Positions 1 through 44,643 of a stretch of DNA of 64,000 nt are shown piece by piece (the first letter of the stretch is position 1; each line of letters begins with the position of its first letter). The notes beneath the pieces were generated by a model. That model was not told the DNA's origin. It made no database searches and saw nothing but the letters and a program-made list of their open reading frames with translations. This DNA is from Nemertoderma westbladi (lineage: Eukaryota; Animalia; Xenacoelomorpha), in assembly GCA_032718475.1 (NCBI GenBank), contig JAUCBJ010009012.1, forward strand, positions 1 through 64,000, in the 5' to 3' direction. Position numbers and translations under genes: made by a program.

Positions 1-345
1 AACATATCGGTAGTACATTTACCTAAACAAACATATCGGTTGTACATTTACCTAAACAAACATATCGGTAGTACATTTACCTAAACAAACATATCGGTAG
101 TACATTTACCTAAACAAACATATCGGTTGTACATTTACCTAAACAAACATATCGGTTGTACATTTACCTAAACAAACATATCGGTTGTACATTTACCTAA
201 ACAAACATATCGGTTGTACATTTACCTAAACAAACCTATCGGTTGTACATTTACCTAAACAAACATATCGGTAGTACATTTACCTAAACAAACATATAGG
301 TTGTACATTTACCTAAACAAACATATCGGTAGTACATTTACCTAA
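1..345. repeat. 29-bp satellite, left segment, continuing off the window
   Basis: Tandem AACATATCGGTWGTACATTTACCTAAACA, about 12 units, identical to the main array at 5924-25725. Confidence 0.98.
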
Positions 346-526
346 GGTCATTGGTCAATAAACGTGGCTCAAAGCGTTGCAAAATATTTTTTTTTTATTT
401 CTTACCGAACCTCAATATATTATATACCATTGGAATCGTCTTCTTGAGCTCTTTCCAGATCTGGCCAAAATATATAAATATACTCAAGTCTAAAAGTTTT
501 ATAGGCGAAGTAACGCTAAATGCTAT

Positions 527-830
527 CCAAGGTAGACATCCAAGGTATACATGGGTTCAAGGTATACATTTTTGTGTACCAAGGTATACATTGGTTAAAT
601 TTTCAAGGTATACGTTTTGTGTACCAAGGTATACAATTTGTGTACCAAGGTATACATTTTGTGTACCAAGGTATACATTTTGTGTACCAAGGTATACATT
701 GGTTAAATTTTCAAGGTATACGTTTTGTGTACCAATGTTAGTCTACCAAGGTATACGTGTTGTGTAGCAAGGTAGTGTGCCAAGGTATACGTGTTGTGTA
801 GCAAGGTATTCTTCGTTTGGTGTAACAAGG
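527..830. repeat. ~21-bp internal tandem repeat (CCAAGGTATACATTTTGTGTA) of the Kolobok-like element
   Basis: Visible tandem copies. Inverted GTATACCTTG copies occur at about 4810-5110. Explains ORFs 351-767 and 520-741. Confidence 0.85.
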
Positions 831-1924
831 TAAACATGGGTTCAATCTTTAAGGTATGAGATTTGTGTATCAAGGGTTACGATATTAGTGATTTTGAAAA
901 CAAGTAAATAAGGTAGGCTGTATCTGGGGTCAATATATTCAGTTCAATATTCAGAGTAAGCCTATATGTAATAGTTAAAGTTTCGGGAGACAGATGCACT
1001 GTAACTGAATAATTGATAGACGCGACAAATCGTTACAAATAAACAAATTCAATATGTTCATTAACTTATCAGAATAGTTAACTGAAGCCCCAGATAATCT
1101 GTTCGACTAGTTTGCGTGTTTCATCGCCTCTATGTTTACATGGTGGTGGGGTGGGGGTAGGGGGTCTGCTAAGCTAGTTCCTTTGAAATGCTATGTAAGC
1201 ATGCCTCTCGCGGTTTAGATTTTGGGACTGTAGCAATTTTCGACAGCCTGTTTTTCGTGGCTCTTTGAGGAAGTTTGTCCGGATTAAAATACCTCAGATG
1301 GTTCTTGTTACAGAATTTACCTTGCAGGTAATGAGAACAGTAGCACGAGGTCTTCCTTCTGGGACGGGATCCATTCTATCTGGTGAATTTGTCTCGTGTT
1401 TGGAATGAGTTTAGGTTTAGTTTAGTTAATGTTTCTGGAAGACTATGAGGGCCGAGTAACTCAAAAAATCTTGAGATTGATCTTGAAACTAACCTTGAAT
1501 CTATTTTACTAGTATTCCTATCTGAAATATTTCAAGGTCAACCTTAAGGTAGACTTCAGATTTTCCTCAAGGTAAACTTGACATTTCAAGCCGGTAACAC
1601 AAAATATCTTGACTTGAGTTGAAGTCAAGATTCGAGGTAAATTTCAAGGTAGCCATAGAGGTACCTTCAAATTTCAAGGTATTTTCAAATCAATGTTTCA
1701 GCTGTTAGCTGTAGTCTTCCGCTACCGGTACCGTAAGCGGCATTTTTGCAGATACCCCAGACCCGAAATTTCTAAATAAAACTCAGTTTATCATGAATAT
1801 AATGAATGATACTGTAGCTAGAGTTATACTGTATAGCGGCACTACTACGAGTATGTGTACCCATGACCGGGATTTTTTGATAGTAGCTAGTTTTTGCTAC
1901 TTTTTTTTAAATTTTCTATGTCAA

Positions 1925-2465
1925 ATTAGCTATAGTTTTGTAAAAAAAATGTTCTAGAACAAATATTTTTTGTTCTAGAACATTTAAAAAAATAAATTTA
2001 TTAGAAATTATTTGTTATGTTAATAAATAGTTTAATTATCTATAAACATTAATAGCTACAGTACTAATTATTTTCAAGCTAGCTAGTGATTTTACAAGTT
2101 TAGCTATCATTTAAAAAAAAATTCAGAAATTAATTGTTATGTGTAATAAATTGTTTTTTTTTAAATAATAGCTAACTGGCAAAATCACTAGCTAGCCTGA
2201 ATATTTCTAGCTATTAATGTTTATATGATAATTAAACAATTTATTACACATAACAAATAAATTCTTAAATTTTTTTTTAATGATAGCTAAACTTGGAAAA
2301 TCACTAGCAAGCCTGATAATTTGTATTTTAGATAAATTTTAGATGTTTATAGATAAATAAACTATTTAACATAATAATAACTAATTTTTAATATTTTTTT
2401 TTAATGTTCTAGAACAAAAAATATTTGTTCTGGAACATAATCTTTTTACCTAACAATAGCTATAA
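1925..2465. repeat. AT-rich foldback (long imperfect inverted repeat)
   Basis: About 2075-2156 is the reverse complement of about 2234-2315. The TGTTCTAGAACA palindrome pair at 1950-1983 is mirrored at 2405-2438. Confidence 0.75.
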
Positions 2466-3604
2466 TCTAATATTTTGAATCTAATCACATGAAAGTTTTT
2501 TTATATGATAGATCAAAGATGGGGCAACATAACTATCAGGCGAAATTTTGTGAAAATAATTCTGCACCGCTAGGTGGCGCTGCAAATTTAGGCTAAATTT
2601 TGAGGTTTGTTATAAATAGTATTAAATTTTATTAACAAATAATTTCGAAAAGTTGTCTGATAATTTTATGCAGGGTGGCTATCTAGACACCCACAGGAAG
2701 TTTCAGACAAATTGCTCAAAAATTGTAGAAGTAGTAGGGTTTTGAAGTTGACAATTTCATAAAAACAATATTTGGAGATAATCGACCTTTCATTATACAT
2801 AATGATAGTAATTTCAATAGGAATCCCTAAATGGAAATTGTTATAACTTGAAAACTAAAAGAGCTATTAAATAGCAGTTTTCAGATTTGGAAACACCATT
2901 CAATGGTGCATTATAATAGACCATAAAAAAAATCGACATATTTTTGACCAAAATGGTGTACCCCCCCCCCCCCCCCCCTTAATTGGAAATGAAATTTAGC
3001 CCAAATTCCAGACTTGGAGGCACTTAGGATTTGACTTGGATTTCGAAAGGAATTTACTTGGAAATCGGCGCTTACTTTGATGTCTGGAAGGTGGACTGAC
3101 TCAGACTATGCTTGTGCTGGTCCACTTCTCCTCTATCCTGTCAATCATTAAGTTGTATAGAATGGACTAGACTCAGCCTAAAGTTTGCGTAGTGTTAGTG
3201 TTCAGTTCATTACATTAAGGTATGGTTGTCGATGGAAGATTACACTGCTACTGTACCTTGTATTGCCAGCCTCTGACGTAAATAATATTTAGAATATGAA
3301 CTATAATAGATGAAATCCACACACATCCCATCCGCACATTATAGTTAACGTCCGTGGGCTGGTGGGCTCTGGAATAATTTAAAATCGTATTGAACTTACA
3401 AATAAATGTAGGATCACACTGTATTTATTACTTTTGAACATATTTTGAGTAATAAAGAGTAAAACACAATGTTTATGTAATTATTAATAGAATAAATATT
3501 AGTTTATTTTCATTTATTAGTTTAATTAATAATTAGACAGGGGCTAAAACTGGGCGACTAAATAAATGTTTGAAGTTTTACTGGAGACTATAAGTACTGT
3601 AGGT

Positions 3605-3818
3605 GGTCTCAGGAATTCTTAGCCCGGTGAGTATTCTTAGCCCGTGGGTATTCTTAGCCCGCAAAACAATAACGTTTATTGATTTGGTTCCCCCAATACG
3701 CCTCTGAAACCTGCTCCTTTACTAACCTGCTCCGTTACTAACTCGCAGGCTAAGAATACTCGCGGGCTAAGAATACCCGTGGGTTAAGAATACTCGCGGG
3801 CTAAGAATTCACCCAACC
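3605..3818. mobile_element. MITE with ~18-bp subterminal repeats (GTATTCTTAGCCCGCGAG)
   Basis: Inverted arms GAATTCTTAGCCCG and CGGGCTAAGAATTC. Flanks CTGTAGGT and ATGTAGGT give an 8-bp TSD with one mismatch, or a 6-bp TGTAGG TSD if the ends are TG..CA. Confidence 0.75.
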
Positions 3819-5923
3819 ATGTAGGTGTATGTTGTTTTGAGTATGGCAACTAATGTCTGGGAATAACAAAGTGTTTCCATAGGCTTCCCCTCTAACATTT
3901 CTGGTCGAGTATATCTCCAATACTTTTATCTAAGAAGATATTAATATCAGCTCTAACAAGTACAGTATTAATAAAATAATACAAAATAATAATACAAAAT
4001 TTTAAACAATTATTCAAGTTTACACCTGGATTCCAACCACACATTTACAACTGATTACGAACGACTATTCATTGTAAATTAGTGAACAGATTAATGACAA
4101 CATACTGTAAAGAAATAGAATGCTCAGTAATATCACATTGTGCGTTTTAGTCCAATACTGTATGTCCCAATCAAAATCCTAATTCCTAATTTTAGGAATT
4201 AGGAATCGAAATCCTAATTTTAGTTTAAGTACTACTGTACATTGCTCACCCTCACAACCATGATTATATTTCCCAGATACAGTATGTCACTTCGATATAC
4301 TGTATAGGCCAAACTGTTGTGGTCAGTAAACTATGTACTGCCTGTAATCTGTTTAGAAGGTGCGTGGTTTTATCGAAATTACAATTGCCAAAGTGTTTCA
4401 ACAGTGTGTTTAACGCTTTAACGTACTGTATTGAGTAGGCCTACTGTATATTATTGCAGGTATACACAATGGGATTCACTGCATAACCTAGGCAACTGCT
4501 GAAATAAACAAATACTTCTTCCATCTTTAATACTCAAGGTGAGCCTTGAAATTTCAAGTATCACCTTGACTAAGTATTGCTTTGAGTTACCCGCTTGACT
4601 GAAACTCAAGAAAATCTTAGTCAAGGTAAAACTTGAGTTTCAAGGTGACCTTGAAGTGAATTTCAAGGTCAATCTCAAGATTTTTTGAGTTACTCGGCCC
4701 AGGTTCACCCTTCAAATCGACCAGCGAAATGATCGAGAAATGGCAACTGGTTATATTATCTTTTGCGAATGATTGGAACGAATGGATTGAATGGAAATGA
4801 ATGGATTGTATTGTATACCTTGGAGTGGTTGTCCCCATTGTTTATATCGTATAGGGGCTGTTAAACGCCTATGTACCGTTTATTAATTGTTCTAAGTTGT
4901 TGTTGAAGCCTGGCCCCATTATGTATATCGTATTGGGGCTGTTAAACGCCTACCGTGTATTAATTGTATTGTATACCTTGAATACATTGTAGAAGCTTGG
5001 CGTGTTGCTGTCCAATTGTTTATCACACTGATAGGGTATACCTTGAACATTATAATATGTATAATAAGCTAAAACTGTCTACCTTGGTATAAAAATGTCT
5101 ACCTTGGAACGAACAAACTCTTTCACTTCCAAGGGATACAAATTCCAAGGGATACCGTCTTATACCAAGGTATACCAATATACTGCAGTATCATAGAAAC
5201 GGGAAGGGCAGCGACAATTTATCTTAGCCAACACAAAGGGCTCTATAGAAGTAATAAAAATTGTAAGTGCCGATATAAACCCGTTCGTTTGTAGAAAATG
5301 ACAGGCAGTCAAAGTTATGTTCCAAGGGTATACATATTTATCCAAAATCGTGTCCTACCCTCCTTAAACAGATTGTGTGGTCAAATTGCAGGAAGTAGGA
5401 GGGTCGAATAGATATAATTTGGGAAGCAGAATCAATACTCATTACAATAAATGTTTATTTGGCGGCATTCCGACACCATGTAAACAGTCTGTAGATGTTG
5501 TTTTTACACTATTTTTTTTAAGAAAAAAGTGAAATTCTATATAGTTTACTATGCTAGACGTTATTTTAAGCCATGGGTCATGTTTATGTTCCCTTTGTGA
5601 TTAAATGAAGAAGCAACGTCCACTCTATCGATTGGTATATAGTATTGGCCAAGATATTCAAGTCATATTTTTGTGTGGCAGCTTATTTCATGGGGACTAT
5701 ATTTTGCAACGCCCAAGGTAGACACCAAGGTATACATTTTTATGACTTGACTTCTTGTAGTGAAAATACAATATTAGTGTGCAACTCAGATTTTATCTAT
5801 GTTGTAGAGCTCGCTCTAAGCTTCCAAACGAGCCCTCAACCATTAAAATCGGTTGATGTAAACTGGATTTATAAGCAAAAGTGTGAATTTGCAAAAATGT
5901 GCCATCCTTACTGACCAATGACC

Positions 5924-8900
5924 CTAAACAAACATATCGGTTGTACATTTACCTAAACAAACCTATCGGTTGTACATTTACCTAAACAAACATATCGGTA
6001 GTACATTTACCTAAACAAACATATCGGTAGTACATTTACCTAAACAAACATATCGGTTGTACATTTACCTAAACAAACATATCGGTTGTACATTTACCTA
6101 AACAAACATATCGGTAGTACATTTACCTAAACAAACATATCTGTAGTACATTTACCTAAACAAACATATCGGTAGTACATTTACCTAAACAAACATATCG
6201 GTTGTACATTTACCTAAACAAACATATCGGTTGTACATTTACCTAAACAAACATATCGGTAGTACATTTACCTAAACAAACATATCGGTAGTACATTTAC
6301 CTAAACAAACATATCGGTAGTACATTTACCTAAACAAACATATCGGTAGTACATTTACCTAAACAAACATATCGGTAGTACATTTACCTAAACAAACATA
6401 TCGGTAGTACATTTACCTAAACAAACATATCGGTAGTACATTTACCTAAACAAACATATCGGTAGTACATTTACGTAAACAAACATATCGGTAGTACATT
6501 TACCTAAACAAACATATCGGTAGTACATTTACCTAAACAAACATATCGGTAGTACATTTACCTAAACAAACATATCTGTAGTACATTTACCTAAACAAAC
6601 ATATCGGTAGTACATTTACCTAAACAAACCTATCGGTTGTACATTTACCTAAACAAACATATCGGTTGTACATTTACCTAAACAAACATATCGGTAGTAC
6701 ATTTACCTAAACAAACATATCGGTAGTATATTTACCTAAACAAACATATCGGTAGTACATTTACCTAAACAAACATATCTGTAGTACATTTACCTAAACA
6801 AACATATCGGTTGTACATTTACCTAAACAAACATATCGGTTGTACATTTACCTAAACAAACATATCGGTTGTACATTTACCTAAACAAACATATCGGTTG
6901 TACATTTACCTAAACAAACCTATCGGTAGTACATTTACCTAAACAAACATATCGGTAGTACATTTACCTAAACAAACATATCTGTAGTACATTTACCTAA
7001 ACAAACATATCGGTTGTACATTTACCTAAACAAACCTATCGGTTGTACATTTACCTAAACAAACATATCGGTTGTACATTTACGTAAACAAACATATCTG
7101 TAGTACATTTACCTAAACAAACATATCGGTAGTACATTTACCTAAACAAACATATCGGTTGTACATTTACCTAAACAAACATATCGGTAGTACATTTACC
7201 TAAACAAACATATCGGTATCGGTTGTACATTTACCTAAACAAACATATCGGTAGTACATTTACCTAAACAAACATATCGGTAGTACATTTACCTAAACAA
7301 ACATATCGGTAGTACATTTACCTAAACAAACATATCGGTTGTACATTTACCTAAACAAACCTATCGGTAGTACATTTACCTAAACAAACATATCGGTTGT
7401 ACATTTACCTAAACAAACATATCGGTAGTACATTTACCTAAACAAACATATCGGTAGTACATTTACCTAAACAAACATATCGGTAGTACATTTACCTAAA
7501 CAAACATATCGGTTGTACATTTACCTAAACAAACCTATCGGTTGTACATTTACCTAAACAAACATATCGGTTGTACATTTACCTAAACAAACCTATCGGT
7601 AGTACATTTACCTAAACAAACATATCGGTTGTACATTTACCTAAACAAACATATCGGTTGTACATTTACCTAAACAAACATATCGGTAGTACATTTACCT
7701 AAACAAACATATCGGTATCGGTTGTACATTTACCTAAACAAACATATCGGTAGTACATTTACCTAAACAAACATATCGGTAGTACATTTACCTAAACAAA
7801 CATATCGGTAGTACATTTACCTAAACAAACATATCGGTTGTACATTTACCTAAACAAACCTATCGGTAGTACATTTACCTAAACAAACATATCGGTTGTA
7901 CATTTACCTAAACAAACATATCGGTAGTACATTTACCTAAACAAACATATCGGTAGTACATTTACCTAAACAAACATATCGGTAGTACATTTACCTAAAC
8001 AAACATATCGGTTGTACATTTACCTAAACAAACCTATCGGTTGTACATTTACCTAAACAAACATATCGGTTGTACATTTACCTAAACAAACCTATCGGTA
8101 GTACATTTACCTAAACAAACATATCGGTTGTACATTTACCTAAACAAACATATCAGTAGTACATTTACCTAAACAAACATATCGGTAGTACATTTACCTA
8201 AACAAACATATCGGTAGTACATTAACCTAAACAAACATATCGGTTGTACATTTACCTAAACAAACATATCGGTAGTACATTTACCTAAACAAACATATCG
8301 GTATCGGTTGTACATTTACCTAAACAAACATATCGGTAGTACATTTACCTAAACAAACATATCGGTAGTACATTTACCTAAACAAACATATCGGATCGGT
8401 AGTACATTTACCTAAACAAACATATCGGTAGTACATTTACCTAAACAAACATATCGGTAGTACATTTACCTAAACAAACATATCGGTAGTACATTTACCT
8501 AAACAAACATATCGGATCGGTAGTACATTTACCTAAACAAACATATCGGTAGTACATTTACCTAAACAAACATATCTGTAGTACATTTACGTAAACAAAC
8601 ATATCGGTAGTACATTTACCTAAACAAACATATCGGTTGTACATTTACCTAAACAAACATATCGGTTGTACATTTACCTAAACAAACCTATCGGTTGTAC
8701 ATTTACCTAAACAAACATATCAGTAGTACATTTACCTAAACAAACATATCGGTTGTACATTTACCTAAACAAACATATCGGTTGTACATTTACCTAAACA
8801 AACATATCGGTAGTACATTTACCTAAACAAACATATCGGTAGTACATTTACCTAAACAAACATATCGGTAGTACATTTACCTAAACAAACATATCGGTAG

Positions 8901-11900
8901 TACATTTACGTAAACAAACATATCGGTAGTACATTTACCTAAACAAACATATCGGTAGTACATTTACCTAAACAAACATATCGGTAGTACATTTACCTAA
9001 ACAAACATATCTGTAGTACATTTACCTAAACAAACATATCGGTAGTACATTTACCTAAACAAACCTATCGGTTGTACATTTACCTAAACAAACATATCGG
9101 TTGTACATTTACCTAAACAAACATATCGGTAGTACATTTACCTAAACAAACATATCGGTAGTATATTTACCTAAACAAACATATCGGTAGTACATTTACC
9201 TAAACAAACATATCTGTAGTACATTTACCTAAACAAACATATCGGTTGTACATTTACCTAAACAAACATATCGGTTGTACATTTACCTAAACAAACATAT
9301 CGGTTGTACATTTACCTAAACAAACATATCGGTTGTACATTTACCTAAACAAACCTATCGGTAGTACATTTACCTAAACAAACATATCGGTAGTACATTT
9401 ACCTAAACAAACATATCTGTAGTACATTTACCTAAACAAACATATCGGTTGTACATTTACCTAAACAAACCTATCGGTTGTACATTTACCTAAACAAACA
9501 TATCGGTTGTACATTTACGTAAACAAACATATCTGTAGTACATTTACCTAAACAAACATATCGGTAGTACATTTACCTAAACAAACATATCGGTTGTACA
9601 TTTACCTAAACAAACATATCGGTAGTACATTTACCTAAACAAACATATCGGTATCGGTTGTACATTTACCTAAACAAACATATCGGTAGTACATTTACCT
9701 AAACAAACATATCGGTAGTACATTTACCTAAACAAACATATCGGTAGTACATTTACCTAAACAAACATATCGGTTGTACATTTACCTAAACAAACCTATC
9801 GGTAGTACATTTACCTAAACAAACATATCGGTTGTACATTTACCTAAACAAACATATCGGTAGTACATTTACCTAAACAAACATATCGGTAGTACATTTA
9901 CCTAAACAAACATATCGGTAGTACATTTACCTAAACAAACATATCGGTTGTACATTTACCTAAACAAACCTATCGGTTGTACATTTACCTAAACAAACAT
10001 ATCGGTTGTACATTTACCTAAACAAACCTATCGGTAGTACATTTACCTAAACAAACATATCGGTTGTACATTTACCTAAACAAACATATCGGTTGTACAT
10101 TTACCTAAACAAACATATCGGTAGTACATTTACCTAAACAAACATATCGGTATCGGTTGTACATTTACCTAAACAAACATATCGGTAGTACATTTACCTA
10201 AACAAACATATCGGTAGTACATTTACCTAAACAAACATATCGGTAGTACATTTACCTAAACAAACATATCGGTTGTACATTTACCTAAACAAACCTATCG
10301 GTAGTACATTTACCTAAACAAACATATCGGTTGTACATTTACCTAAACAAACATATCGGTAGTACATTTACCTAAACAAACATATCGGTAGTACATTTAC
10401 CTAAACAAACATATCGGTAGTACATTTACCTAAACAAACATATCGGTTGTACATTTACCTAAACAAACCTATCGGTTGTACATTTACCTAAACAAACATA
10501 TCGGTTGTACATTTACCTAAACAAACATATCGGTAGTACATTTACCTAAACAAACATATCGGTTGTACATTTACCTAAACAAACATATCGGTAGTACATT
10601 TACCTAAACAAACATATCGGTAGTACATTTACCTAAACAAACATATCGGTAGTACATTTACCTAAACAAACATATCGGTTGTACATTTACCTAAACAAAC
10701 ATATCGGTAGTACATTTACCTAAACAAACATATCGGTATCGGTTGTACATTTACCTAAACAAACATATCGGTAGTACATTTACCTAAACAAACATATCGG
10801 TAGTACATTTACCTAAACAAACATATCGGATCGGTAGTACATTTACCTAAACAAACATATCGGTAGTACATTTACCTAAACAAACATATCGGTAGTACAT
10901 TTACCTAAACAAACATATCGGTAGTACATTTACCTAAACAAACATATCGGATCGGTAGTACATTTACCTAAACAAACATATCGGTAGTACATTTACCTAA
11001 ACAAACATATCTGTAGTACATTTACGTAAACAAACATATCGGTAGTACATTTACCTAAACAAACATATCGGTTGTACATTTACCTAAACAAACATATCGG
11101 TTGTACATTTACCTAAACAAACCTATCGGTTGTACATTTACCTAAACAAACATATCAGTAGTACATTTACCTAAACAAACATATCGGTTGTACATTTACC
11201 TAAACAAACATATCGGTTGTACATTTACCTAAACAAACATATCGGTTGTACATTTACCTAAACAAACCTATCGGTTGTACATTTACCTAAACAAACATAT
11301 CAGTAGTACATTTACCTAAACAAACATATCGGTTGTACATTTACCTAAACAAACATATCGGTTGTACATTTACCTAAACAAACATATCGGTTGTACATTT
11401 ACCTAAACAAACCTATCGGTTGTACATTTACCTAAACAAACATATCAGTAGTACATTTACCTAAACAAACATATCGGTAGTACATTTACCTAAACAAACA
11501 TATCGGTTGTACATTTACCTAAACAAACATATCGGTAGTACATTTACCTAAACAAACATATCGGTAGTACATTTACCTAAACAAACATATCGGTTGTACA
11601 TTTACCTAAACAAACATATCGGTTGTACATTTACCTAAACAAACATATCGGTTGTACATTTACCTAAACAAACATATCGGTTGTACATTTACCTAAACAA
11701 ACATATCGGTTGTACATTTACCTAAACAAACCTATCGGTTGTACATTTACCTAAACAAACATATCAGTAGTACATTTACCTAAACAAACATATCGGTTGT
11801 ACATTTACCTAAACAAACATATCGGTTGTACATTTACCTAAACAAACATATCGGTTGTACATTTACCTAAAGAAACCTATCGGTTGTACATTTACCTAAA

Positions 11901-14900
11901 CAAACATATCAGTAGTACATTTACCTAAACAAACATATCGGTAGTACATTTACCTAAACAAACATATCGGTTGTACATTTACCTAAACAAACATATCGGT
12001 AGTACATTTACCTAAACAAACATATCGGTAGTACATTTACCTAAACAAACATATCGGTTGTACATTTACCTAAACAAACATATCGGTTGTACATTTACCT
12101 AAACAAACATATCGGTTGTACATTTACCTAAACAAACATATCGGTTGTACATTTACCTAAACAAACCTATCGGTTGTACATTTACCTAAACAAACATATC
12201 GGTAGTACATTTACCTAAACAAACATATCGGTTGTACATTTACCTAAACAAACATATCGGTTGTACATTTACCTAAACAAACCTATCGGTTGTACATTTA
12301 CCTAAACAAACATATCAGTAGTACATTTACCTAAACAAACATATCGGTAGTACATTTACCTAAACAAACATATCGGTTGTACATTTACCTAAACAAACAT
12401 ATCGGTAGTACATTTACCTAAACAAACATATCGGTAGTACATTTACCTAAACAAACATATCGGTTGTACATTTACCTAAACAAACATATCGGTTGTACAT
12501 TTACCTAAACAAACATATCGGTTGTACATTTACCTAAACAAACATATCGGTTGTACATTTACCTAAACAAACATATCGGTTGTACATTTACCTAAACAAA
12601 CCTATCGGTTGTACATTTACCTAAACAAACATATCAGTAGTACATTTACCTAAACAAACATATCGGTTGTACATTTACCTAAACAAACATATCGGTTGTA
12701 CATTTACCTAAACAAACATATCGGTTGTACATTTACCTAAAGAAACCTATCGGTTGTACATTTACCTAAACAAACATATCAGTAGTACATTTACCTAAAC
12801 AAACATATCGGTAGTACATTTACCTAAACAAACATATCGGTTGTACATTTACCTAAACAAACATATCGGTAGTACATTTACCTAAACAAACATATCGGTA
12901 GTACATTTACCTAAACAAACATATCGGTTGTACATTTACCTAAACAAACATATCGGTTGTACATTTACCTAAACAAACATATCGGTTGTACATTTACCTA
13001 AACAAACATATCGGTTGTACATTTACCTAAACAAACCTATCGGTTGTACATTTACCTAAACAAACATATCGGTAGTACATTTACCTAAACAAACATATCG
13101 GTAGTACATTTACCTAAACAAACATATCGGTTGTACATTTACCTAAACAAACCTATCGGTTGTACATTTACCTAAACAAACATATCGGTAGTACATTTAC
13201 CTAAACAAACATATCGGTTGTACATTTACCTAAACAAACATATCGGTAGTACATTTACCTAAACAAACATATCGGTAGTACATTTACCTAAACAAACATA
13301 TCGGTAGTACATTTACCTAAACAAACATATCGGTAGTACATTTACCTAAACAAACATATCGGTTGTACATTTACCTAAACAAACATATCTGTAGTACATT
13401 TACCTAAACAATCATATCGGTAGTACATTTACCTAAACAAACATATCGGTTGTACATTTACCTAAACAAACATATCGGTTGTACATTTACCTAAACAAAC
13501 ATATCGGTAGTACATTTACCTAAACAAACATATCGGTTGTACATTTACCTAAACAAACATATCGGTTGTACATTTACCTAAACAAACATATCGGATCGGT
13601 AGTACATTTACCTAAACAAACATATCGGTTGTACATTTACCTAAACAAACCTATCGGTTGTACATTTACCTAAACAAACATATCGGTAGTACATTTACCT
13701 AAACAAACATATCGGTAGTACATTTACCTAAACAAACATATCTGTAGTACATTTACCTAAACAAACATATCGGTTGTACATTTACCTAAACAAACCTATC
13801 GGTTGTACATTTACCTAAACAAACATATCGGTTGTACATTTACGTAAACAAACATATCTGTAGTACATTTACCTAAACAAACATATCGGTAGTACATTTA
13901 CCTAAACAAACATATCGGTTGTACATTTACCTAAACAAACATATCGGTAGTACATTTACCTAAACAAACATATCGGTATCGGTTGTACATTTACCTAAAC
14001 AAACATATCGGTAGTACATTTACCTAAACAAACATATCGGTAGTACATTTACCTAAACAAACATATCGGTAGTACATTTACCTAAACAAACATATCGGTT
14101 GTACATTTACCTAAACAAACCTATCGGTAGTACATTTACCTAAACAAACATATCGGTAGTACATTTACCTAAACAAACATATCGGTTGTACATTTACCTA
14201 AACAAACATATCGGTAGTACATTTACCTAAACAAACATATCGGTAGTACATTTACCTAAACAAACATATCGGTAGTACATTTACCTAAACAAACATATCG
14301 GTTGTACATTTACCTAAACAAACATATCGGTAGTCCGTAGTACATTTACCTAAACAAACATATCGGTTGTACATTTACCTAAACAAACATATCGGTAGTA
14401 CATTTACCTAAACAAACATATCGGTTGTACATTTACCTAAACAAACATATCGGTTGTACATTTACCTAAACAATCATATCGGTTGTACATTTACCTAAAC
14501 AAACATATCGGTAGTACATTTACCTAAACAAACATATCGGTTGTACATTTACCTAAACAAACATATCGGTTGTACATTTACCTAAACAAACATATCGGTT
14601 GTACATTTACCTAAACAATCATATCGGTTGTACATTTACCTAAACAAACATATCGGTAGTACATTTACCTAAACAAACATATCGGTAGTCCGTAGTACAT
14701 TTACCTAAACAAACATATCGGTTGTACATTTACCTAAACAAACATATCGGTAGTACATTTACCTAAACAAACATATCGGTTGTACATTTACCTAAACAAA
14801 CATATCGGTAGTACATTTACCTAAACAAACATATCGGATCGGTAGTACATTTACCTAAACAAACATATCGGTTGTACATTTACCTAAACAAACATATCGG

Positions 14901-17900
14901 TAGTACATTTACCTAAACAAACATATCGGTAGTACATTTACCTAAACAAACATATCGGTTGTACATTTACCTAAACAAACATATCGGTAGTACATTTACC
15001 TAAACAAACCTATCGGTAGTACATTTACCTAAACAAACATATCGGTTGTACATTTACCTAAACAAACATATCGGTAGTACATTTACCTAAACAAACATAT
15101 CGGTAGTACATTTACCTAAACAAACATATCGGTAGTCCGTAGTACATTTACCTAAACAAACATATCGGTAGTACATTTACCTAAACAAACATATCGGTAG
15201 TACATTTACCTAAACAAACATATCGGTAGTACATTTACCTAAACAAACATATCGGTAGTACATTTACCTAAACAAACATATCGGTAGTCCGTAGTACATT
15301 TACCTAAACAAACATATCGGTAGTACATTTACCTAAACAAACATATCGGTAGTACATTTACCTAAACAAACATATCGGTAGTACATTTACCTAAACAAAC
15401 ATATCGGTAGTACATTTACCTAAACAAACATATCGGTAGTACATTTACCTAAACAAACATATCGGTAGTACATTTACCTAAACAAACATATCGGTAGTAC
15501 ATTTACCTAAACAAACATATCGGTAGTACATTTACCTAAACAAACATATCGGTTGTACATTTACCTAAACAAACATATCGGTAGTACATTTACCTAAACA
15601 AACATATCGGTAGTACATTTACCTAAACAAACATATCGGTAGTACATTTACCTAAACAAACATATCGGTTGTACATTTACCTAAACAAACATATCGGTAG
15701 TACATTTACCTAAACAAACATATCGGTAGTACATTTACCTAAACAAACATATCGGTAGTACATTTACCTAAACAAACATATCGGTAGTACATTTACCTAA
15801 ACAAACATATCGGTAGTACATTTACCTAAACAAACATATCGGTAGTACATTTACCTAAACAAACATATCGGTTGTACATTTACCTAAACAAACATATCGG
15901 TTGTACATTTACCTAAACAAACATATCGGTAGTACATTTACCTAAACAAACATATCGGTAGTCCGTAGTACATTTACCTAAACAAACATATCGGTTGTAC
16001 ATTTACCTAAACAAACATATCGGTAGTACATTTACCTAAACAAACATATCGGTTGTACATTTACCTAAACAAACATATCGGTAGTACATTTACCTAAACA
16101 AACATATCGGATCGGTAGTACATTTACCTAAACAAACATATCGGTTGTACATTTACCTAAACAAACATATCGGTAGTACATTTACCTAAACAAACATATC
16201 GGTAGTACATTTACCTAAACAAACATATCGGTTGTACATTTACCTAAACAAACATATCGGTAGTACATTTACCTAAACAAACATATCGGTAGTACATTTA
16301 CCTAAACAAACATATCGGTTGTACATTTACCTAAACAAACATATCGGTAGTACATTTACCTAAACAAACATATCGGTAGTACATTTACCTAAACAAACAT
16401 ATCGGTAGTCCGTAGTACATTTACCTAAACAAACATATCGGTAGTACATTTACCTAAACAAACATATCGGTAGTACATTTACCTAAACAAACATATCGGT
16501 AGTACATTTACCTAAACAAACATATCGGTAGTACATTTACCTAAACAAACATATCGGTAGTCCGTAGTACATTTACCTAAACAAACATATCGGTAGTACA
16601 TTTACCTAAACAAACATATCGGTAGTACATTTACCTAAACAAACATATCGGTAGTACATTTACCTAAACAAACATATCGGTAGTACATTTACCTAAACAA
16701 ACATATCGGTAGTACATTTACCTAAACAAACATATCGGTAGTACATTTACCTAAACAAACATATCGGTTGTACATTTACCTAAACAAACATATCGGTTGT
16801 ACATTTACCTAAACAAACATATCGGTTGTACATTTACCTAAACAAACATATCGGTAGTACATTTACCTAAACAAACATATCGTTATCGGTTGTACATTTA
16901 CCTAAACAAACATATCGGTAGTACATTTACCTAAACAAACATATCGGTTGTACATTTACCTAAACAAACATATCGGTAGTACATTTACCTAAACAAACAT
17001 ATCGTTATCGGTTGTACATTTACCTAAACAAACATATCGGTAGTACATTTACCTAAACAAACATATCGGTTGTACATTTACCTAAACAAACATATCGGTT
17101 GTACATTTACCTAAACAAACATATCGGTAGTACATTTACCTAAACAAACATATCGGTTGTACATTTACCTAAACAAACATATCGGTTGTACATTTACCTA
17201 AACAAACATATCGGTATCGGTTGTACATTTACCTAAACAAACATATCGGTAGTACATTTACCTAAACAAACATATCGGTTGTACATTTACCTAAACAAAC
17301 ATATCGGTTGTACATTTACCTAAACAAACATATCGGTTGTACATTTACCTAAACAAACATATCGGTAGTACATTTACCTAAACAAACATATCGTTATCGG
17401 TTGTACATTTACCTAAACAAACATATCGGTAGTACATTTACCTAAACAAACATATCGGTTGTACATTTACCTAAACAAACATATCGGTATCGGTTGTACA
17501 TTTACCTAAACAAACATATCGGTTGTACATTTACCTAAACAAACATATCGGTATCGGTTGTACATTTACCTAAACAAACATATCGGTTGTACATTTACCT
17601 AAACAAACATATCGGTAGTACATTTACCTAAACAAACATATCGGTAGTACATTTACCTAAACAAACATATCGGTTGTACATTTACCTAAACAAACATATC
17701 GGTAGTACATTTACCTAAACAAACATATCGGTAGTACATTTACCTAAACAAACATATCGGTAGTCCGTAGTACATTTACCTAAACAAACATATCGGTAGT
17801 ACATTTACCTAAACAAACATATCGGTAGTACATTTACCTAAACAAACATATCGGTAGTACATTTACCTAAACAAACATATCGGTTGTACATTTACCTAAA

Positions 17901-20900
17901 CAAACATATCGGTAGTACATTTACCTAAACAAACAAAGCGGTTGTACATTTACCTAAACAAACATATCGGTTGTACATTTACCTAAACAAACCTATCGGT
18001 TGTACATTTACCTAAACAAACATATCGGTTGTACATTTACCTAAACAAACATATCGGTTGTACATTTACCTAAACAAACATATCGGTAGTACATTTACCT
18101 AAACAAACAAAGCGGTTGTACATTTACCTAAACAAACATATCAGTAGTACATTTACCTAAACAAACATATCGGTAGTACATTTACCTAAACAAACATATC
18201 GGTAGTACATTTACCTAAACAAACATATCGGTAGTACATTTACCTAAACAAACATATCGGTAGTCCGTAGTACATTTACCTAAACAAACATATCGGTAGT
18301 ACATTTACCTAAACAAACATATCGGTTGTACATTTACCTAAACAAACATATCGGTAGTACATTTACCTAAACAAACATATCGGTAGTACATTTACCTAAA
18401 CAAACATATCGGTTGTACATTTACCTAAACAAACATATCGGTAGTACATTTACCTAAACAAACAAAGCGGTTGTACATTTACCTAAACAAACATATCGGT
18501 TGTACATTTACCTAAACAAACCTATCGGTTGTACATTTACCTAAACAAACATATCGGTTGTACATTTACCTAAACAAACATATCGGTTGTACATTTACCT
18601 AAACAAACATATCGGTAGTACATTTACCTAAACAAACAAAGCGGTTGTACATTTACCTAAACAAACATATCAGTAGTACATTTACCTAAACAAACATATC
18701 GGTAGTACATTTACCTAAACAAACATATCGGTTGTACATTTACCTAAACAAACATATCGGTAGTACATTTACCTAAACAAACAAAGCGGTTGTACATTTA
18801 CCTAAACAAACATATCGGTTGTACATTTACCTAAACAAACCTATCGGTTGTACATTTACCTAAACAAACATATCGGTTGTACATTTACCTAAACAAACAT
18901 ATCGGTTGTACATTTACCTAAACAAACATATCGGTAGTACATTTACCTAAACAAACAAAGCGGTTGTACATTTACCTAAACAAACATATCAGTAGTACAT
19001 TTACCTAAACAAACATATCGGTAGTACATTTACCTAAACAAACATATCGGTTGTACATTTACCTAAACAAACATATCGGTAGTACATTTACCTAAACAAA
19101 CATATCGTTATCGGTTGTACATTTACCTAAACAAACATATCGGTAGTACATTTACCTAAACAAACATATCGGTTGTACATTTACCTAAACAAACATATCG
19201 GTTGTACATTTACCTAAACAAACATATCGGTAGTACATTTACCTAAACAAACATATCGGTTGTACATTTACCTAAACAAACATATCGGTTGTACATTTAC
19301 CTAAACAAACATATCGGTATCGGTTGTACATTTACCTAAACAAACATATCGGTAGTACATTTACCTAAACAAACATATCGGTTGTACATTTACCTAAACA
19401 AACATATCGGTAGTACATTTACCTAAACAAACAAAGCGGTTGTACATTTACCTAAACAAACATATCGGTTGTACATTTACCTAAACAAACCTATCGGTTG
19501 TACATTTACCTAAACAAACATATCGGTTGTACATTTACCTAAACAAACATATCGGTTGTACATTTACCTAAACAAACATATCGGTAGTACATTTACCTAA
19601 ACAAACATAGCGGTTGTACATTTACCTAAACAAACATATCGGTAGTACATTTACCTAAACAAACATATCGGTAGTACATTTACCTAAACAAACATATCGG
19701 TAGTACATTTACCTAAACAAACATATCGGTAGTACATTTACCTAAACAAACATATCGGTAGTCCGTAGTACATTTACCTAAACAAACATATCGGTAGTAC
19801 ATTTACCTAAACAAACATATCGGTTGTACATTTACCTAAACAAACATATCGGTAGTACATTTACCTAAACAAACATATCGGTAGTACATTTACCTAAACA
19901 AACATATCGGTTGTACATTTACCTAAACAAACATATCGGTAGTACATTTACCTAAACAAACAAAGCGGTTGTACATTTACCTAAACAAACATATCGGTTG
20001 TACATTTACCTAAACAAACCTATCGGTTGTACATTTACCTAAACAAACATATCGGTAGTACATTTACCTAAACAAACATATCGGTAGTACATTTACCTAA
20101 ACAAACATATCGGTAGTACATTTACCTAAACAAACATATCGGTAGTACATTTACCTAAACAAACATATCGGTAGTACATTTACCTAAACAAACATATCGG
20201 TAGTACATTTACCTAAACAAACATATCGGTAGTACATTTACCTAAACAAACATATCGGTAGTACATTTACCTAAACAAACATATCGGTTGTACATTTACC
20301 TAAACAAACATATCGGTAGTACATTTACCTAAACAAACATATCGGTAGTACATTTACCTAAACAAACATATCGGTAGTACATTTACCTAAACAAACATAT
20401 CGGTTGTACATTTACCTAAACAAACATATCGGTAGTACATTTACCTAAACAAACATATCGGTAGTACATTTACCTAAACAAACATATCGGTAGTACATTT
20501 ACCTAAACAAACATATCGGTAGTACATTTACCTAAACAAACATATCGGTAGTACATTTACCTAAACAAACATATCGGTAGTACATTTACCTAAACAAACA
20601 TATCGGTTGTACATTTACCTAAACAATCATATCGGTTGTACATTTACCTAAACAAACATATCGGTAGTACATTTACCTAAACAAACATATCGGTAGTCCG
20701 TAGTACATTTACCTAAACAAACATATCGGTTGTACATTTACCTAAACAAACATATCGGTAGTACATTTACCTAAACAAACATATCGGTTGTACATTTACC
20801 TAAACAAACATATCGGTAGTACATTTACCTAAACAAACATATCGGATCGGTAGTACATTTACCTAAACAAACATATCGGTTGTACATTTACCTAAACAAA

Positions 20901-23900
20901 CATATCGGTAGTACATTTACCTAAACAAACATATCGGTAGTACATTTACCTAAACAAACATATCGGTTGTACATTTACCTAAACAAACATATCGGTAGTA
21001 CATTTACCTAAACAAACATATCGGTAGTACATTTACCTAAACAAACATATCGGTTGTACATTTACCTAAACAAACATATCGGTAGTACATTTACCTAAAC
21101 AAACATATCGGTAGTACATTTACCTAAACAAACATATCGGTAGTCCGTAGTACATTTACCTAAACAAACATATCGGTAGTACATTTACCTAAACAAACAT
21201 ATCGGTAGTACATTTACCTAAACAAACATATCGGTAGTACATTTACCTAAACAAACATATCGGTAGTACATTTACCTAAACAAACATATCGGTAGTCCGT
21301 AGTACATTTACCTAAACAAACATATCGGTAGTACATTTACCTAAACAAACATATCGGTAGTACATTTACCTAAACAAACATATCGGTAGTCGTAGTACAT
21401 TTACCTAAACAAACATATCGGTAGTACATTTACCTAAACAAACATATCGGTAGTACATTTACCTAAACAAACATATCGGTAGTACATTTACCTAAACAAA
21501 CATATCGGTATCGTAGTACATTTACCTAAACAAACATATCGGTAGTACATTTACCTAAACAAACATATCGGTAGTACATTTACCTAAACAAACATATCGG
21601 TAGTACATTTACCTAAACAAACATATCGGTAGTACATTTACCTAAACAAACATATCGGTAGTACATTTACCTAAACAAACATATCGGTAGTACATTTACC
21701 TAAACAAACATATCGGTAGTACATTTACCTAAACAAACATATCGGTAGTACATTTACCTAAACAAACATATCGGTAGTACATTTACCTAAACAAACATAT
21801 CGGTAGTACATTTACCTAAACAAACATATCGGTAGTACATTTACCTAAACAAACATATCGGTAGTACATTTACCTAAACAAACATATCGGTAGTACATTT
21901 ACCTAAACAAACATATCGGTAGTCCGTAGTACATTTACCTAAACAAACATATCGGTAGTACATTTACCTAAACAAACATATCGGTAGTACATTTACCTAA
22001 ACAAACATATCGGTAGTCCGTAGTACATTTACCTAAACAAACATATCGGTAGTACATTTACCTAAACAAACATATCGGTAGTACATTTACCTAAACAAAC
22101 ATATCGGTAGTACATTTACCTAAACAAACATATCGGTAGTCCGTAGTACATTTACCTAAACAAACATATCGGTAGTACATTTACCTAAACAAACATATCG
22201 GTAGTACATTTACCTAAACAAACATATCGGTAGTACATTTACCTAAACAAACATATCGGTAGTACATTTACCTAAACAAACATATCGGTAGTCCGTAGTA
22301 CATTTACCTAAACAAACATATCGGTAGTACATTTACCTAAACAAACATATCGGTAGTACATTTACCTAAACAAACATATCGGTAGTCCGTAGTACATTTA
22401 CCTAAACAAACATATCGGTAGTACATTTACCTAAACAAACATATCGGTAGTACATTTACCTAAACAAACATATCGGTAGTACATTTACCTAAACAAACAT
22501 ATCGGTAGTACATTTACCTAAACAAACATATCGGTAGTCCGTAGTACATTTACCTAAACAAACATATCGGTAGTACATTTACCTAAACAAACATATCGGT
22601 AGTACATTTACCTAAACAAACATATCGGTTGTACATTTACCTAAACAAACATATCGGTTGTACATTTACCTAAACAAACATATCGGTTGTACATTTACCT
22701 AAACAAACATATCGGTAGTACATTTACCTAAACAAACATATCGGTAGTACATTTACCTAAACAAACATATCGGTAGTACATTTACCTAAACAAACATATC
22801 GGTAGTACATTTACCTAAACAAACATATCGGTAGTACATTTACCTAAACAAACATATCGGTAGTACATTTACCTAAACAAACATATCGGTTGTACATTTA
22901 CCTAAACAAACATATCGGTTGTACATTTACCTAAACAAACATATCGGTTGTACATTTACCTAAACAAACATATCGGTAGTACATTTACCTAAACAAACAT
23001 ATCGTTATCGGTTGTACATTTACCTAAACAAACATATCGGTAGTACATTTACCTAAACAAACATATCGGTTGTACATTTACCTAAACAAACATATCGGTA
23101 GTACATTTACCTAAACAAACATATCGTTATCGGTTGTACATTTACCTAAACAAACATATCGGTAGTACATTTACCTAAACAAACATATCGGTTGTACATT
23201 TACCTAAACAAACATATCGGTTGTACATTTACCTAAACAAACATATCGGTTGTACATTTACCTAAACAAACATATCGGTAGTACATTTACCTAAACAAAC
23301 ATATCGGTTGTACATTTACCTAAACAAACATATCGGTTGTACATTTACCTAAACAAACATATCGGTATCGGTTGTACATTTACCTAAACAAACATATCGG
23401 TAGTACATTTACCTAAACAAACATATCGGTTGTACATTTACCTAAACAAACATATCGGTTGTACATTTACCTAAACAAACATATCGGTTGTACATTTACC
23501 TAAACAAACATATCGGTAGTACATTTACCTAAACAAACATATCGTTATCGGTTGTACATTTACCTAAACAAACATATCGGTAGTACATTTACCTAAACAA
23601 ACATATCGGTTGTACATTTACCTAAACAAACATATCGGTATCGGTTGTACATTTACCTAAACAAACATATCGGTTGTACATTTACCTAAACAAACATATC
23701 GGTATCGGTTGTACATTTACCTAAACAAACATATCGGTTGTACATTTACCTAAACAAACATATCGGTAGTACATTTACCTAAACAAACATATCGGTAGTA
23801 CATTTACCTAAACAAACATATCGGTTGTACATTTACCTAAACAAACATATCGGTAGTACATTTACCTAAACAAACATATCGGTAGTACATTTACCTAAAC

Positions 23901-25725
23901 AAACATATCGGTAGTCCGTAGTACATTTACCTAAACAAACATATCGGTAGTACATTTACCTAAACAAACATATCGGTAGTACATTTACCTAAACAAACAT
24001 ATCGGTAGTACATTTACCTAAACAAACATATCGGTTGTACATTTACCTAAACAAACATATCGGTAGTACATTTACCTAAACAAACAAAGCGGTTGTACAT
24101 TTACCTAAACAAACATATCGGTTGTACATTTACCTAAACAAACCTATCGGTTGTACATTTACCTAAACAAACATATCGGTTGTACATTTACCTAAACAAA
24201 CATATCGGTTGTACATTTACCTAAACAAACATATCGGTAGTACATTTACCTAAACAAACAAAGCGGTTGTACATTTACCTAAACAAACATATCAGTAGTA
24301 CATTTACCTAAACAAACATATCGGTAGTACATTTACCTAAACAAACATATCGGTAGTACATTTACCTAAACAAACATATCGGTAGTACATTTACCTAAAC
24401 AAACATATCGGTAGTCCGTAGTACATTTACCTAAACAAACATATCGGTAGTACATTTACCTAAACAAACATATCGGTTGTACATTTACCTAAACAAACAT
24501 ATCGGTAGTACATTTACCTAAACAAACATATCGGTAGTACATTTACCTAAACAAACATATCGGTTGTACATTTACCTAAACAAACATATCGGTAGTACAT
24601 TTACCTAAACAAACAAAGCGGTTGTACATTTACCTAAACAAACATATCGGTTGTACATTTACCTAAACAAACCTATCGGTTGTACATTTACCTAAACAAA
24701 CATATCGGTTGTACATTTACCTAAACAAACATATCGGTTGTACATTTACCTAAACAAACATATCGGTAGTACATTTACCTAAACAAACAAAGCGGTTGTA
24801 CATTTACCTAAACAAACATATCAGTAGTACATTTACCTAAACAAACATATCGGTAGTACATTTACCTAAACAAACATATCGGTTGTACATTTACCTAAAC
24901 AAACATATCGGTAGTACATTTACCTAAACAAACAAAGCGGTTGTACATTTACCTAAACAAACATATCGGTTGTACATTTACCTAAACAAACCTATCGGTT
25001 GTACATTTACCTAAACAAACATATCGGTTGTACATTTACCTAAACAAACATATCGGTTGTACATTTACCTAAACAAACATATCGGTAGTACATTTACCTA
25101 AACAAACAAAGCGGTTGTACATTTACCTAAACAAACATATCAGTAGTACATTTACCTAAACAAACATATCGGTAGTACATTTACCTAAACAAACATATCG
25201 GTTGTACATTTACCTAAACAAACATATCGGTAGTACATTTACCTAAACAAACATATCGTTATCGGTTGTACATTTACCTAAACAAACATATCGGTAGTAC
25301 ATTTACCTAAACAAACATATCGGTTGTACATTTACCTAAACAAACATATCGGTTGTACATTTACCTAAACAAACATATCGGTAGTACATTTACCTAAACA
25401 AACATATCGGTTGTACATTTACCTAAACAAACATATCGGTTGTACATTTACCTAAACAAACATATCGGTATCGGTTGTACATTTACCTAAACAAACATAT
25501 CGGTAGTACATTTACCTAAACAAACATATCGGTTGTACATTTACCTAAACAAACATATCGGTTGTACATTTACCTAAACAAACATATCGGTTGTACATTT
25601 ACCTAAACAAACATATCGGTAGTACATTTACCTAAACAAACATATCGGTTGTACATTTACCTAAACAAACATATCGGTAGTACATTTACCTAAACAAACA
25701 TATCGGTTGTACATTTACCTAAACA
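5924..25725. repeat. 29-bp satellite, ~19.8 kb (about 680 units), derived from the aconitase intron-4/exon-5 junction
   Basis: Highly homogeneous tandem unit. Its minus strand reads ATGTTTGTTTAG GTAAATGTACWACCGAT. Recurrent variants form kb-scale duplicated blocks. Confidence 0.98.
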
Positions 25726-25869
25726 CCTCCAACATGTGTAACGTAACCCATTGGAACCAGCCTATAAGTTGTAGGTTTGAAGTGATGGCGATTGAAATAA
25801 TATGGGTAGGATGTAGTTTATAGTTGACATATATTTAATCTCGCAGAGGCTGCATGTATTGAGTCTAAC

Positions 25870-26052
25870 CTTTTACTTTAATAAGGACAACGGCGTCTAT
25901 AATATCTTTACCATCCCAAACTGGGAAAGGGTCTAACAACTGTAGTCTGTCGCTGGTTGGAGACACGTCTACCGACTTCGAGCTGCCCTCGGCGGGGGGG
26001 TGTTGGTAAGTATCCTCTCCTGGGTCGAAACCCAAACTCGGTAAGTGCTCAC
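25870..26052 (-). CDS. ACO2: Mitochondrial aconitase, exon 4 (missed by the ORF track)
   Basis: Translates (G)[60 protein letters not shown](G). Acceptor ttacttAG at 26053-26054, donor GTTAGA at 25869. 183 nt, phase 1 to phase 1. Confidence 0.93.
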
Positions 26053-26054
26053 CT

Positions 26055-33411: not shown

Positions 33412-33610
33412 CAGCGGGGGGTTCTAGAACAAAAGATTGTCCCTTGGAATCTGTAATGGCATCGTGTACGGGGTTGAAGTCGAGTCTCCCAGCGAGTACC
33501 ATCGCTGTAACAATCTCTGGCGATGCCACGAACGCGTGGGTTGCGGGATTAGCGTCGTTGCGACCCGTAAAGTTACGATTGTACGAAGTCACTATCGTAT
33601 TCTTCTCCCC
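33412..33610 (-). CDS. ACO2: Mitochondrial aconitase, exon 3
   Basis: [36 protein letters not shown]...LEPPA(G). Acceptor ttttAG at 33611-33612, donor GTAGGT at 33411. 199 nt, phase 0 to phase 1. Confidence 0.95.
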
Positions 33611-37797: not shown

Positions 37798-37840
<43 letters not shown>

Positions 37841-40930: not shown

Positions 40931-40966
40931 CTGATTCATGTACTGTTATTTAATCGGCGCTAAATT

Positions 40967-44630: not shown

Positions 44631-44643
44631 GTTAACTGTGTGA

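Follow-up and report, generated by a model that had tools for sequence, protein, structure and literature searches.

A satellite-sized array of splice-acceptor junction units within the mitochondrial aconitase gene of Nemertoderma westbladi

How can a gene of core metabolism be spliced across an intron filled with hundreds of copies of what appears to be its own 3' splice site? The question is raised by a 64-kb stretch of Nemertoderma westbladi DNA (positions 1 to 64,000 of contig JAUCBJ010009012.1, hereafter the window), which bears four coding exons of a mitochondrial aconitase (ACO2-type) gene on its minus strand (Table 1). The first of these exons shares 80% identity with the mitochondrial aconitases of fish and tick, and exons 1-4 together form an open, gap-free match of 584 residues to homologues at 75% identity; no protein record identical to the exon-4 peptide was found among the 120 matches listed of 2,177 (best 80%), and an Rfam search of the 64-kb window returned 0 matches. 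An earlier note on this DNA had ended exon 4 at I-K-V-K-G in phase 1 and closed a 151-nt intron at the first AG; both assignments were recovered here, and the donor falls at 25869.

Table 1. Coordinates of the aconitase exons, the repeat arrays and the insertion in the 64-kb window.
Feature	Position	Strand	Details and basis
Resumption of the 29-bp array, 12 units (11.9 copies)	1..345	-	345-bp block with 12 intact acceptors, continues past the window edge
Transposon-like insertion, 5,578 bp	346..5923	.	Terminal inverted repeats of 12 bp without mismatch; TTAG (4 bp) duplicated at one acceptor
Main 29-bp array, 671 units (671.3 copies)	5924..25725	-	19.8-kb block; repeat analysis
Intron 4, unique 5' part, 151 nt	25719..25869	-	Real donor at 25869, first AG at 25720-25719
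Exon 4	25870..26052	-	Ends I-K-V-K-G, phase 1; covered by spliced contig and by DNA contigs, two individuals
28-bp array, 262 copies	26056..33387	-	Fills intron 3; repeat analysis
Exon 3	33412..33610	-	Four-exon model aligns gap-free to homologues; X4 contig joins its 3' end to exon 4
Exon 2	33958..34593	-	Pfam Aconitase, E=4.6e-64; GT-AG borders
Coding exon 1	36291..37034	-	Pfam Aconitase PF00330, E=1.6e-53; ORF

In the 29-bp unit, 12 nt of the intron-4 acceptor are followed by the 17 nt with which aconitase exon 5 begins, such that the last base of exon 4 and the 17 nt together encode G-K-C-T-T-D. The chance probability of an AG followed in phase by these six codons is 1.8e-9 for a single site and 1e-7 when all 29 registers on both strands are counted, and GKCTTDHIS occupies the exon 4-5 position in 114 of 120 homologues, in agreement with the continuation that the earlier note had given for mitochondrial aconitases. 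Its reading of the unit as a splice acceptor plus the start of exon 5 in the same phase is thus borne out by translation as well as by the transcribed exon described below, and we hold the identity and origin of the unit, taken by themselves, to be close to certain. Within the 64-kb window the 17-mer of exon 5 (with up to 2 mismatches) does not occur outside the two array blocks, and tblastn with the C-termini of five homologues found no exon 5 sequence past its first six residues, which places the real exon 5 beyond the window, as had been proposed.

Some 700 copies had been claimed, a fair figure given the 671.3 and 11.9 counted in the window, but as one continuous array over 1-25869; a non-repeat insertion of 5,578 bp (346-5923) in fact splits it in two. 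Both blocks together hold 676 intact TTAG/GT sites (the slash marking the splice position) and 7 lost ones, of which 664 intact and 7 lost belong to the main block. The array is homogeneous, with a mean identity to the consensus of 97.9% over 616 units of 29 nt, and its 22 unit variants are arranged in ordered higher-order patterns; exact block duplications of 2,369 nt and 1,743 nt occur inside the main array. Each unit further presents, unremarked in the earlier note, a donor-like GT directly behind its acceptor (AG/GTAAAT) that matches the donor consensus at 8 of 11 positions, comparable to the four own donors of the gene (6, 7, 8 and 7 of 11 on the same consensus). The first AG would close a 151-nt intron at the position and of the length previously described, yet the acceptor itself is a weakened one: only its last 7 nt are common to the unit, a 5-nt purine insertion into the 12 intronic nt creates an extra AG 8 nt upstream, and pyrimidines fill just 9 of 18 positions. 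With just 17 branch-point-like YTRAY motifs in the whole main block and none in the 151-nt unique part of intron 4, no branch point could be placed. As a separate observation on the unit codons, the commonest polymorphism falls on a synonymous threonine position and two rarer ones are also synonymous, while three further polymorphisms are non-synonymous or nonsense; selection on these codons was considered, and with changes of both kinds present the events are too few to claim it.

The insertion carries perfect 12-bp terminal inverted repeats (346-357 and 5912-5923) and ends in GG...CC, in line with the RR...YY termini and inverted repeats of Kolobok elements, which are defined in addition by a TTAA target duplication and a DDE transposase (PMC9587614). 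The duplicated target is TTAG rather than TTAA, no DDE transposase was found, and no stop-free frame in the insertion exceeds 101 codons except one that runs across a tandem repeat. From its sequence we therefore describe the insertion as Kolobok-like by its ends only, and do not assign it to Kolobok; as a DNA transposon it would be non-autonomous. Because the same unit variants flank it on both sides and a target duplication is present, it would have entered later than the array was formed.

The neighbouring intron 3 is itself filled by a tandem array, whose 28-bp unit corresponds to the intron-3 polypyrimidine tract and 8 nt of exon 4, lacking the 8 nt that surround the splice site. The in-register 8-nt word shared by the unit and exon-4 positions 6-13 is that of the column consensus, the commonest variant giving a match of 5 nt only. 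It occurs in 26 of 36,453 background 20-mers (that is, 2 sites), and any 8-nt word of the unit in 424 of 36,453, for an out-of-register chance of 1.2%. On this likeness, the acceptor junction of intron 3 is the probable source of the array, the splice site itself having been deleted.

Evidence that the exons are correctly joined comes from public run X4, labelled 'DNA?' but taken as cDNA on the sole ground that its contig joins exons. The spliced contig (record 23; 1,885 nt, depth 1,474) links exons 3, 4 and the real exon 5, which opens with the 17 nt of the unit and continues into H-I-S-A-A (K-C-T-T-D-H-I-S-A-A, translated by eye from the reverse complement of the loose end at 25868), and it extends 738 nt past exon 4, enough for the approximately 185 residues still needed. 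The key prediction of the earlier note, the run-on from the unit into H-I-S-A-A, accordingly holds for RNA in this contig, which is also the sole X4 record on a 432-nt stretch (1 of 1) and has the correct junction. Contigs lose rare forms, such that splicing error rates are not readable from them, and gaps such as those of X4 on the array and the 151-nt intron, or of X3 on exon 4, where depth is lacking, are not evidence. X4 stems from a third sample, S3, the DNA of which was not seen and whose allele may or may not bear the array; its contig matches exon 4 except for one change, which it shares with the array-bearing sample S2.

We lean towards a model where the array is a junction-born minisatellite, raised by duplication and unequal exchange, and where correct mRNA is made via the last acceptor. 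A single short tandem duplication across the intron-4/exon-5 junction likely started it, in an intron of probably about 146-151 nt, and growth likely proceeded by unequal crossing-over, as the kilobase-long exact block repeats suggest, with a DNA transposon entering the array at a later time. Most likely, the last acceptor, in front of the real exon 5, would alone be used productively and be chosen by exon definition, although the first acceptor, at a distance of 151 nt from the donor, would already be open to use well before transcription reaches exon 5. Every one of the 661 internal acceptors that were tested leads to a stop within 21 codons (599 of them after 9 codons), and so wrongly spliced RNA may be cleared by nonsense-mediated decay. 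The donor-like GT of each unit would allow short pseudo-exons to be defined within the array, and an account by exon definition alone is the weaker for it. Overall, the gene would tolerate the array as a passenger, and the array would not be an adaptive device.

The same origin could be combined with another route of splicing, in which intron 4 is removed stepwise over a ladder of recursive ratchet sites formed by the array, with errors erased along the way up to the true exon 5: splicing of exon 4 to an internal acceptor would rebuild a donor (exon-4 AAG plus unit GTAAAT), to be spliced again further on, and with AG/GT in each unit mis-splices could indeed be re-spliced. Ratchet points are described as juxtaposed acceptor-donor pairs that require a downstream donor defining a cryptic exon (PMC8605326); at the sequence level the aconitase units show the same order of acceptor and then donor (AG/GTAAAT), the window offers 676 intact sites, and downstream units offer the donors needed to define a cryptic exon. 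Like ratchet points and RS-exons (PMC8605326, PMC8184009), in which a donor follows directly upon the acceptor, exon 5 itself starts with a donor-like GT. The rebuilt donor scores 8 of 11 on the donor consensus, where the real exon-4 donor scores 7, and departs from the working exon-1 donor no earlier than position +5, but it lacks the +5G. Moreover, the exon junction complex is reported to suppress regenerated sites after splicing (PMC8184009), and the final exon 4-5 junction rebuilds an identical donor that must escape reuse. AG/GT at an exon start is also common by ancestry, GT being the first two bases in 3 of the 4 downstream exons of this gene, and mirages, the amphioxus repeats discussed below, are reported to splice correctly though some of their units lack AG/GT. 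In the sources on ratchet points each is a lone conserved site within a long intron, its intermediates demonstrated, whereas here hundreds of candidate sites lie 29 nt apart and the contigs, which could not show an intermediate, contain none. We consider stepwise removal possible but unlikely. Its most far-reaching form, a natural ladder with roughly a thousand sites for recursive splicing in which the donor-start of exon 5 enabled growth to tens of kilobases and intron 3 took the other escape by deleting its splice site, strikes us as doubtful; the intron-3 array, which has no AG/GT, would fit a filter of losing the acceptor or ratcheting, a speculative reading of two cases.

It is improbable that the array marks a dead or inefficiently spliced copy, whether allele or paralogue, with the correct mRNA supplied by a short allele or by another aconitase locus. 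Such a reading would accommodate a spliced contig from a third sample whose DNA was not seen, and a join of array and exon 5 that was not seen in DNA: in X1-X3 no DNA contig led from a unit on into exon 5, where one would overlap the searched stretch by only about 30 nt. Against it, exons 1-4 are open and gap-free over the 584 residues, the X4 contig equals exon 4 but for the change common to S2, and no DNA contig with an alternative path past the first unit is listed. Run X2, from another sample and another study, yields a contig joining exon 4, intron and array at a depth of 22.9, and the one loose end found in this run, at 25723, proved to be a unit variant. The array is thus present in a second individual at a similar relative depth, the summed array depth by the same ratio being 4,559 in X2 and 4,473 in X1, where summed depth does not equal copy number. 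An assembly artefact that accounts for the array, in whole or for the greater part, is very improbable, and so is an unrelated satellite of chance likeness: X1 is possibly the assembly's own source and hence not independent, and the support comes from contigs, but the chance estimate given above, the ordered patterns of the 22 variants and the presence of the array in X2 all speak against it, as does one exact 54-nt array contig at 528 times the depth of unique sequence, while its words number 312 copies in the window, which indicates that the assembly does not overstate the amount of array. A rough estimate from depth puts the whole array at about 1,150 units, or 34 kb.

Returning to the junction-born minisatellite, its closest known counterparts are the mirage minisatellites of amphioxus, reported for Adh3, the globins BflGb6 and BflGb9, troponin C and PGBD5, where acceptor-side duplications are described as leaving regular splicing undisturbed (PMC3087553, PMC3902484). 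These are likewise tandem repeats across an intron-exon boundary in which many units retain AG/GT, and in BflGb6, as in aconitase, the 3' end of the intron is repeated along with the 5' part of the next exon. The aconitase array shares their boundary-spanning unit, preserved splice signals and regularly spliced mRNA, the last from one contig of a sample whose DNA was not seen, and is likely an extremely large example of this class: the copy numbers reported are 3 and 6 for BflGb6 and about 3 for PGBD5, compared with at least 683 units and more than 20 kb here, and the aconitase array, unlike the mirages described, is 98% homogeneous and carries a transposon-like insertion. In the human minisatellites that span splice boundaries (F7 intron 7, CBS intron 13, interferon-inducible 6-16, lamin B2 and PDGF; PMC1557585), an authentic splice site is reiterated and the authentic or nearest few sites alone are reported to be used; there a donor is repeated 5-25 times and the first-transcribed site is used, whereas in aconitase it is an acceptor, and the site in use would be the last one, after more than 25 kb. 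Dual-specific AGGT sites also occur in the tandem repeats of UBC and VCX3A (PMC10809524), and introns can be gained through tandem genomic duplication (PMC3443670). Repeats of this type have AGGT in the unit, as here, and unit-to-unit splicing is possible in principle in both, but they are exonic and create new introns, while in aconitase an existing intron was lengthened and none gained. Intron gain by exonic AGGT duplication, in which donor and acceptor would both stem from the duplicated segment, was rejected for this locus, because neither the donor at 25869 nor the 151-nt intron body belongs to the repeat, both being unique sequence. In the main texts of the open-access papers searched, acceptor arrays with hundreds of copies did not appear, and we make no claim to the largest one known.

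The class of element is thus already known, and the novelty lies in the scale and in a ratchet geometry that can be tested. Exon 5 is preceded by at least 676 intact decoy acceptors that hardly differ from one another or, presumably, from the true site, and since local sequence cannot distinguish between such sites, the locus offers an unusually clean natural test of 3' splice site choice by first-AG scanning, exon definition or recursive splicing. It also illustrates how a splice junction can become satellite-sized DNA, a course that was probably taken twice, in adjacent introns, and indicates that correct mRNA can persist when a junction repeat reaches this size in a gene of core metabolism.

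The array lies in intron 4 of a mitochondrial aconitase gene, of which four coding exons are present in the window and give a model aligning gap-free with fish aconitase (75% identity over 584 residues), its closest protein matches among the homologues listed being all animal (74-84%). Exon 4 ends in I-K-V-K-G, in phase 1, and each 29-bp unit carries 17 nt completing G-K-C-T-T-D in that phase, then 12 nt ending in TTAG; GKCTTDHIS occupies the exon-4/5 position in 114 of the 120 homologues listed, where a median of 185 residues follow CTTD. A match between unit and aconitase junction has a chance of 1.8e-9 per site, or 1e-7 across all registers and strands. Upstream of the gene stand homopolymeric stretches of G and C, one 42 nt long (37798-37839) and one 28 nt long (38424-38451).

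Coordinates of the aconitase exons, the tandem arrays and the inserted element
Feature	Position	Strand	Details
Aconitase coding exon 1	37034-36291	minus	GT-AG borders; Pfam Aconitase match
Aconitase coding exon 2	34593-33958	minus	GT-AG borders; Pfam Aconitase match
Aconitase coding exon 3	33610-33412	minus	GT-AG borders
Aconitase coding exon 4	26052-25870	minus	GT-AG borders
28-bp array filling intron 3	26056-33387		262 copies
Main 29-bp array	5923-25725	minus	Tandem Repeats Finder, period 29, 671.3 copies
Inserted element	346-5923		5,578 bp; perfect 12-bp terminal inverted repeat
Second 29-bp array block	1-345	minus	Tandem Repeats Finder, 11.9 copies, cut by window edge

Six public sequencing runs were considered, none recorded as RNA and five with all or some of the stretch, and the contigs of four were compared with 25644-26075. 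In one run, X4, a single record of 1,885 nt (depth 1,474) covers exon 4 only within this interval and has two loose ends which, read by eye, are the end of exon 3 and the unit's 17 nt followed by H-I-S-A-A; because it holds exon 4 alone, joined on both sides in this way, it behaves as spliced cDNA, and it reaches 738 nt past exon 4, sufficient for the remaining protein. This single contig, from a sample known without its DNA, shows that the true exon 5 starts with the unit's 17 nt; contigs lose rare isoforms. Together with the in-phase match and its low chance value, it bears out the earlier note, which had read the unit as the aconitase acceptor plus exon-5 start and had expected H-I-S-A-A to follow, here at the transcript level. 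No DNA contig on 25644-26075 is listed as running from a unit into exon 5, and tblastn with five homologue C-termini matches only the six repeated residues in the window, which places the rest of exon 5 outside it, as that note had supposed.

Intact acceptors number 664 in the main block and 12 in the edge block, the AG being gone in seven, and identity to the consensus averages 97.9% over the 616 units that are 29 nt long. The 22 unit variants form higher-order patterns, and exact blocks of 2,369 and 1,743 nt recur within the array, which would be the usual trace of unequal exchange. The main polymorphism (357 versus 259 of the 616 units) falls at a synonymous threonine codon position, with the minority form present in transcribed exon 5; it may go back to a pair of old alleles that unequal exchange has intermingled. 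The first AG after exon 4, at 25720-25719 and 151 nt from the donor, belongs to an acceptor that consists of the unit's 12 intronic nt with 5 nt of purines inserted. Pyrimidines fill 9 of its 18 positions, against 11 in the unit and 13-15 in the gene's working acceptors, and an additional AG lies 8 nt upstream; this acceptor may have decayed after duplication. A 3-nt word is common to the intron directly before the duplicated 12 nt (25735-25719) and to exon 5 directly after the duplicated 17 nt; speculatively, it could be the microhomology behind a duplication that at first spanned 30 nt and has since dropped one base.

Both X1, possibly the source of the assembly (depth 26.1), and X2, from another sample and study (depth 22.9), have a unique contig that leads out of exon 4, crosses the 151-nt intron and enters the first unit. 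Array depth summed relative to unique depth, which is not a copy number, is nearly equal in the two (4,473 and 4,559). An exact 54-nt array contig in X1 stands at 528 times unique depth, and the window has 312 occurrences of its words; a rough total of 1,150 units, or 34 kb, is suggested if all copies lie at the aconitase locus.

The array had been described as continuous across 1-25869, wrongly, as a non-array element splits it. On both flanks it has TTAG, the four bases with which one acceptor ends, and since the same unit variants lie on either side, the element probably entered a pre-existing array. Inverted repeats nested inside it (1449-1493 paired with 4656-4700; 1942-2445) hint at additional elements, and no long ORF was found there. 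In its GG...CC ends and its duplication of 4 bp it is similar to Kolobok elements, but we do not assign it there, the Kolobok duplication being given as TTAA in the portion of PMC9587614 available. Elsewhere in the window, 63-68-bp units form a tandem array of about 19 copies (44625-45859). An ORF of 865 residues without introns (40964-43561, plus strand), rich in cysteine at one end and lacking a Pfam match, may be transposon-derived. An intact-looking BEL/Pao ORF of 2,655 residues (49777-57744, plus strand; Pfam Peptidase_A17, DUF1759, DUF5641, Integrase_H2C2) apparently sits in a ~17.5-kb element between long direct repeats, matched by eye near 46430-46720 and 63710-64000. Three successive same-frame ORFs in this presumed LTR element (424, 422 and 574 residues; 59362-63630, plus strand), separated by single TAG stops and without Pfam match, are possibly one extra gene, broken or read through.

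Intron 3 is filled by an array of its own, whose last 28-bp unit provides the exon-4 acceptor with its pyrimidine tract. In the consensus unit the 8 nt after this tract equal exon-4 positions 6-13, so that it may be read as intron end plus exon start, minus 8 nt around AG|GT. Of 36,453 background 20-mers, 26 (at 2 sites) contain the in-register 8-nt word and 424 contain one or another of the unit's 8-nt words; we regard a junction origin as quite probable. The consensus lacks AG, with a weak AAG in 93 variant units.

Joined to exon 4, each of the 661 internal 29-bp-array acceptors tested runs into a stop codon after no more than 21 codons (after 9 in 599 cases), which leaves the last acceptor alone able to yield the enzyme. 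On balance we favor its direct choice, the simplest route, as the sole acceptor preceding the real exon, with wrongly spliced products removed by decay; mirages, the amphioxus minisatellites spanning intron-exon boundaries, are said to splice normally in the available parts of PMC3087553 and PMC3902484. Against direct choice counts a donor-like GT in every unit: exon-4 AAG plus the unit start agrees with the donor consensus at 8 of 11 positions (6-8 in the four real donors), so that a wrong splice at any unit would recreate a donor from which splicing could proceed once more. Such recursion would share the geometry of ratchet points, where an acceptor directly joins a donor (PMC8605326, in part), and we consider it rather unlikely, because re-splicing of this kind is reportedly prevented by the exon junction complex (PMC8184009, in the text available) and because the final exon 4-5 junction rebuilds the same donor.

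Intron gain by AGGT duplication, reviewed in PMC3443670 (available in part), is ruled out for intron 4, which has its own donor. In the accessible portions of the sources, UBC bears AGGT repeats splicing unit to unit (PMC10809524), human boundary minisatellites repeat the donor side in 5-25 copies (PMC1557585), whereas the aconitase array repeats the acceptor, and one acceptor-side amphioxus mirage has 3 and 6 units (PMC3087553, PMC3902484), against several hundred here. A literature search run without the term "mirage" and without supplements found no printed acceptor array of such size. The aconitase array is real and belongs to a known class, of which it is a very large example.
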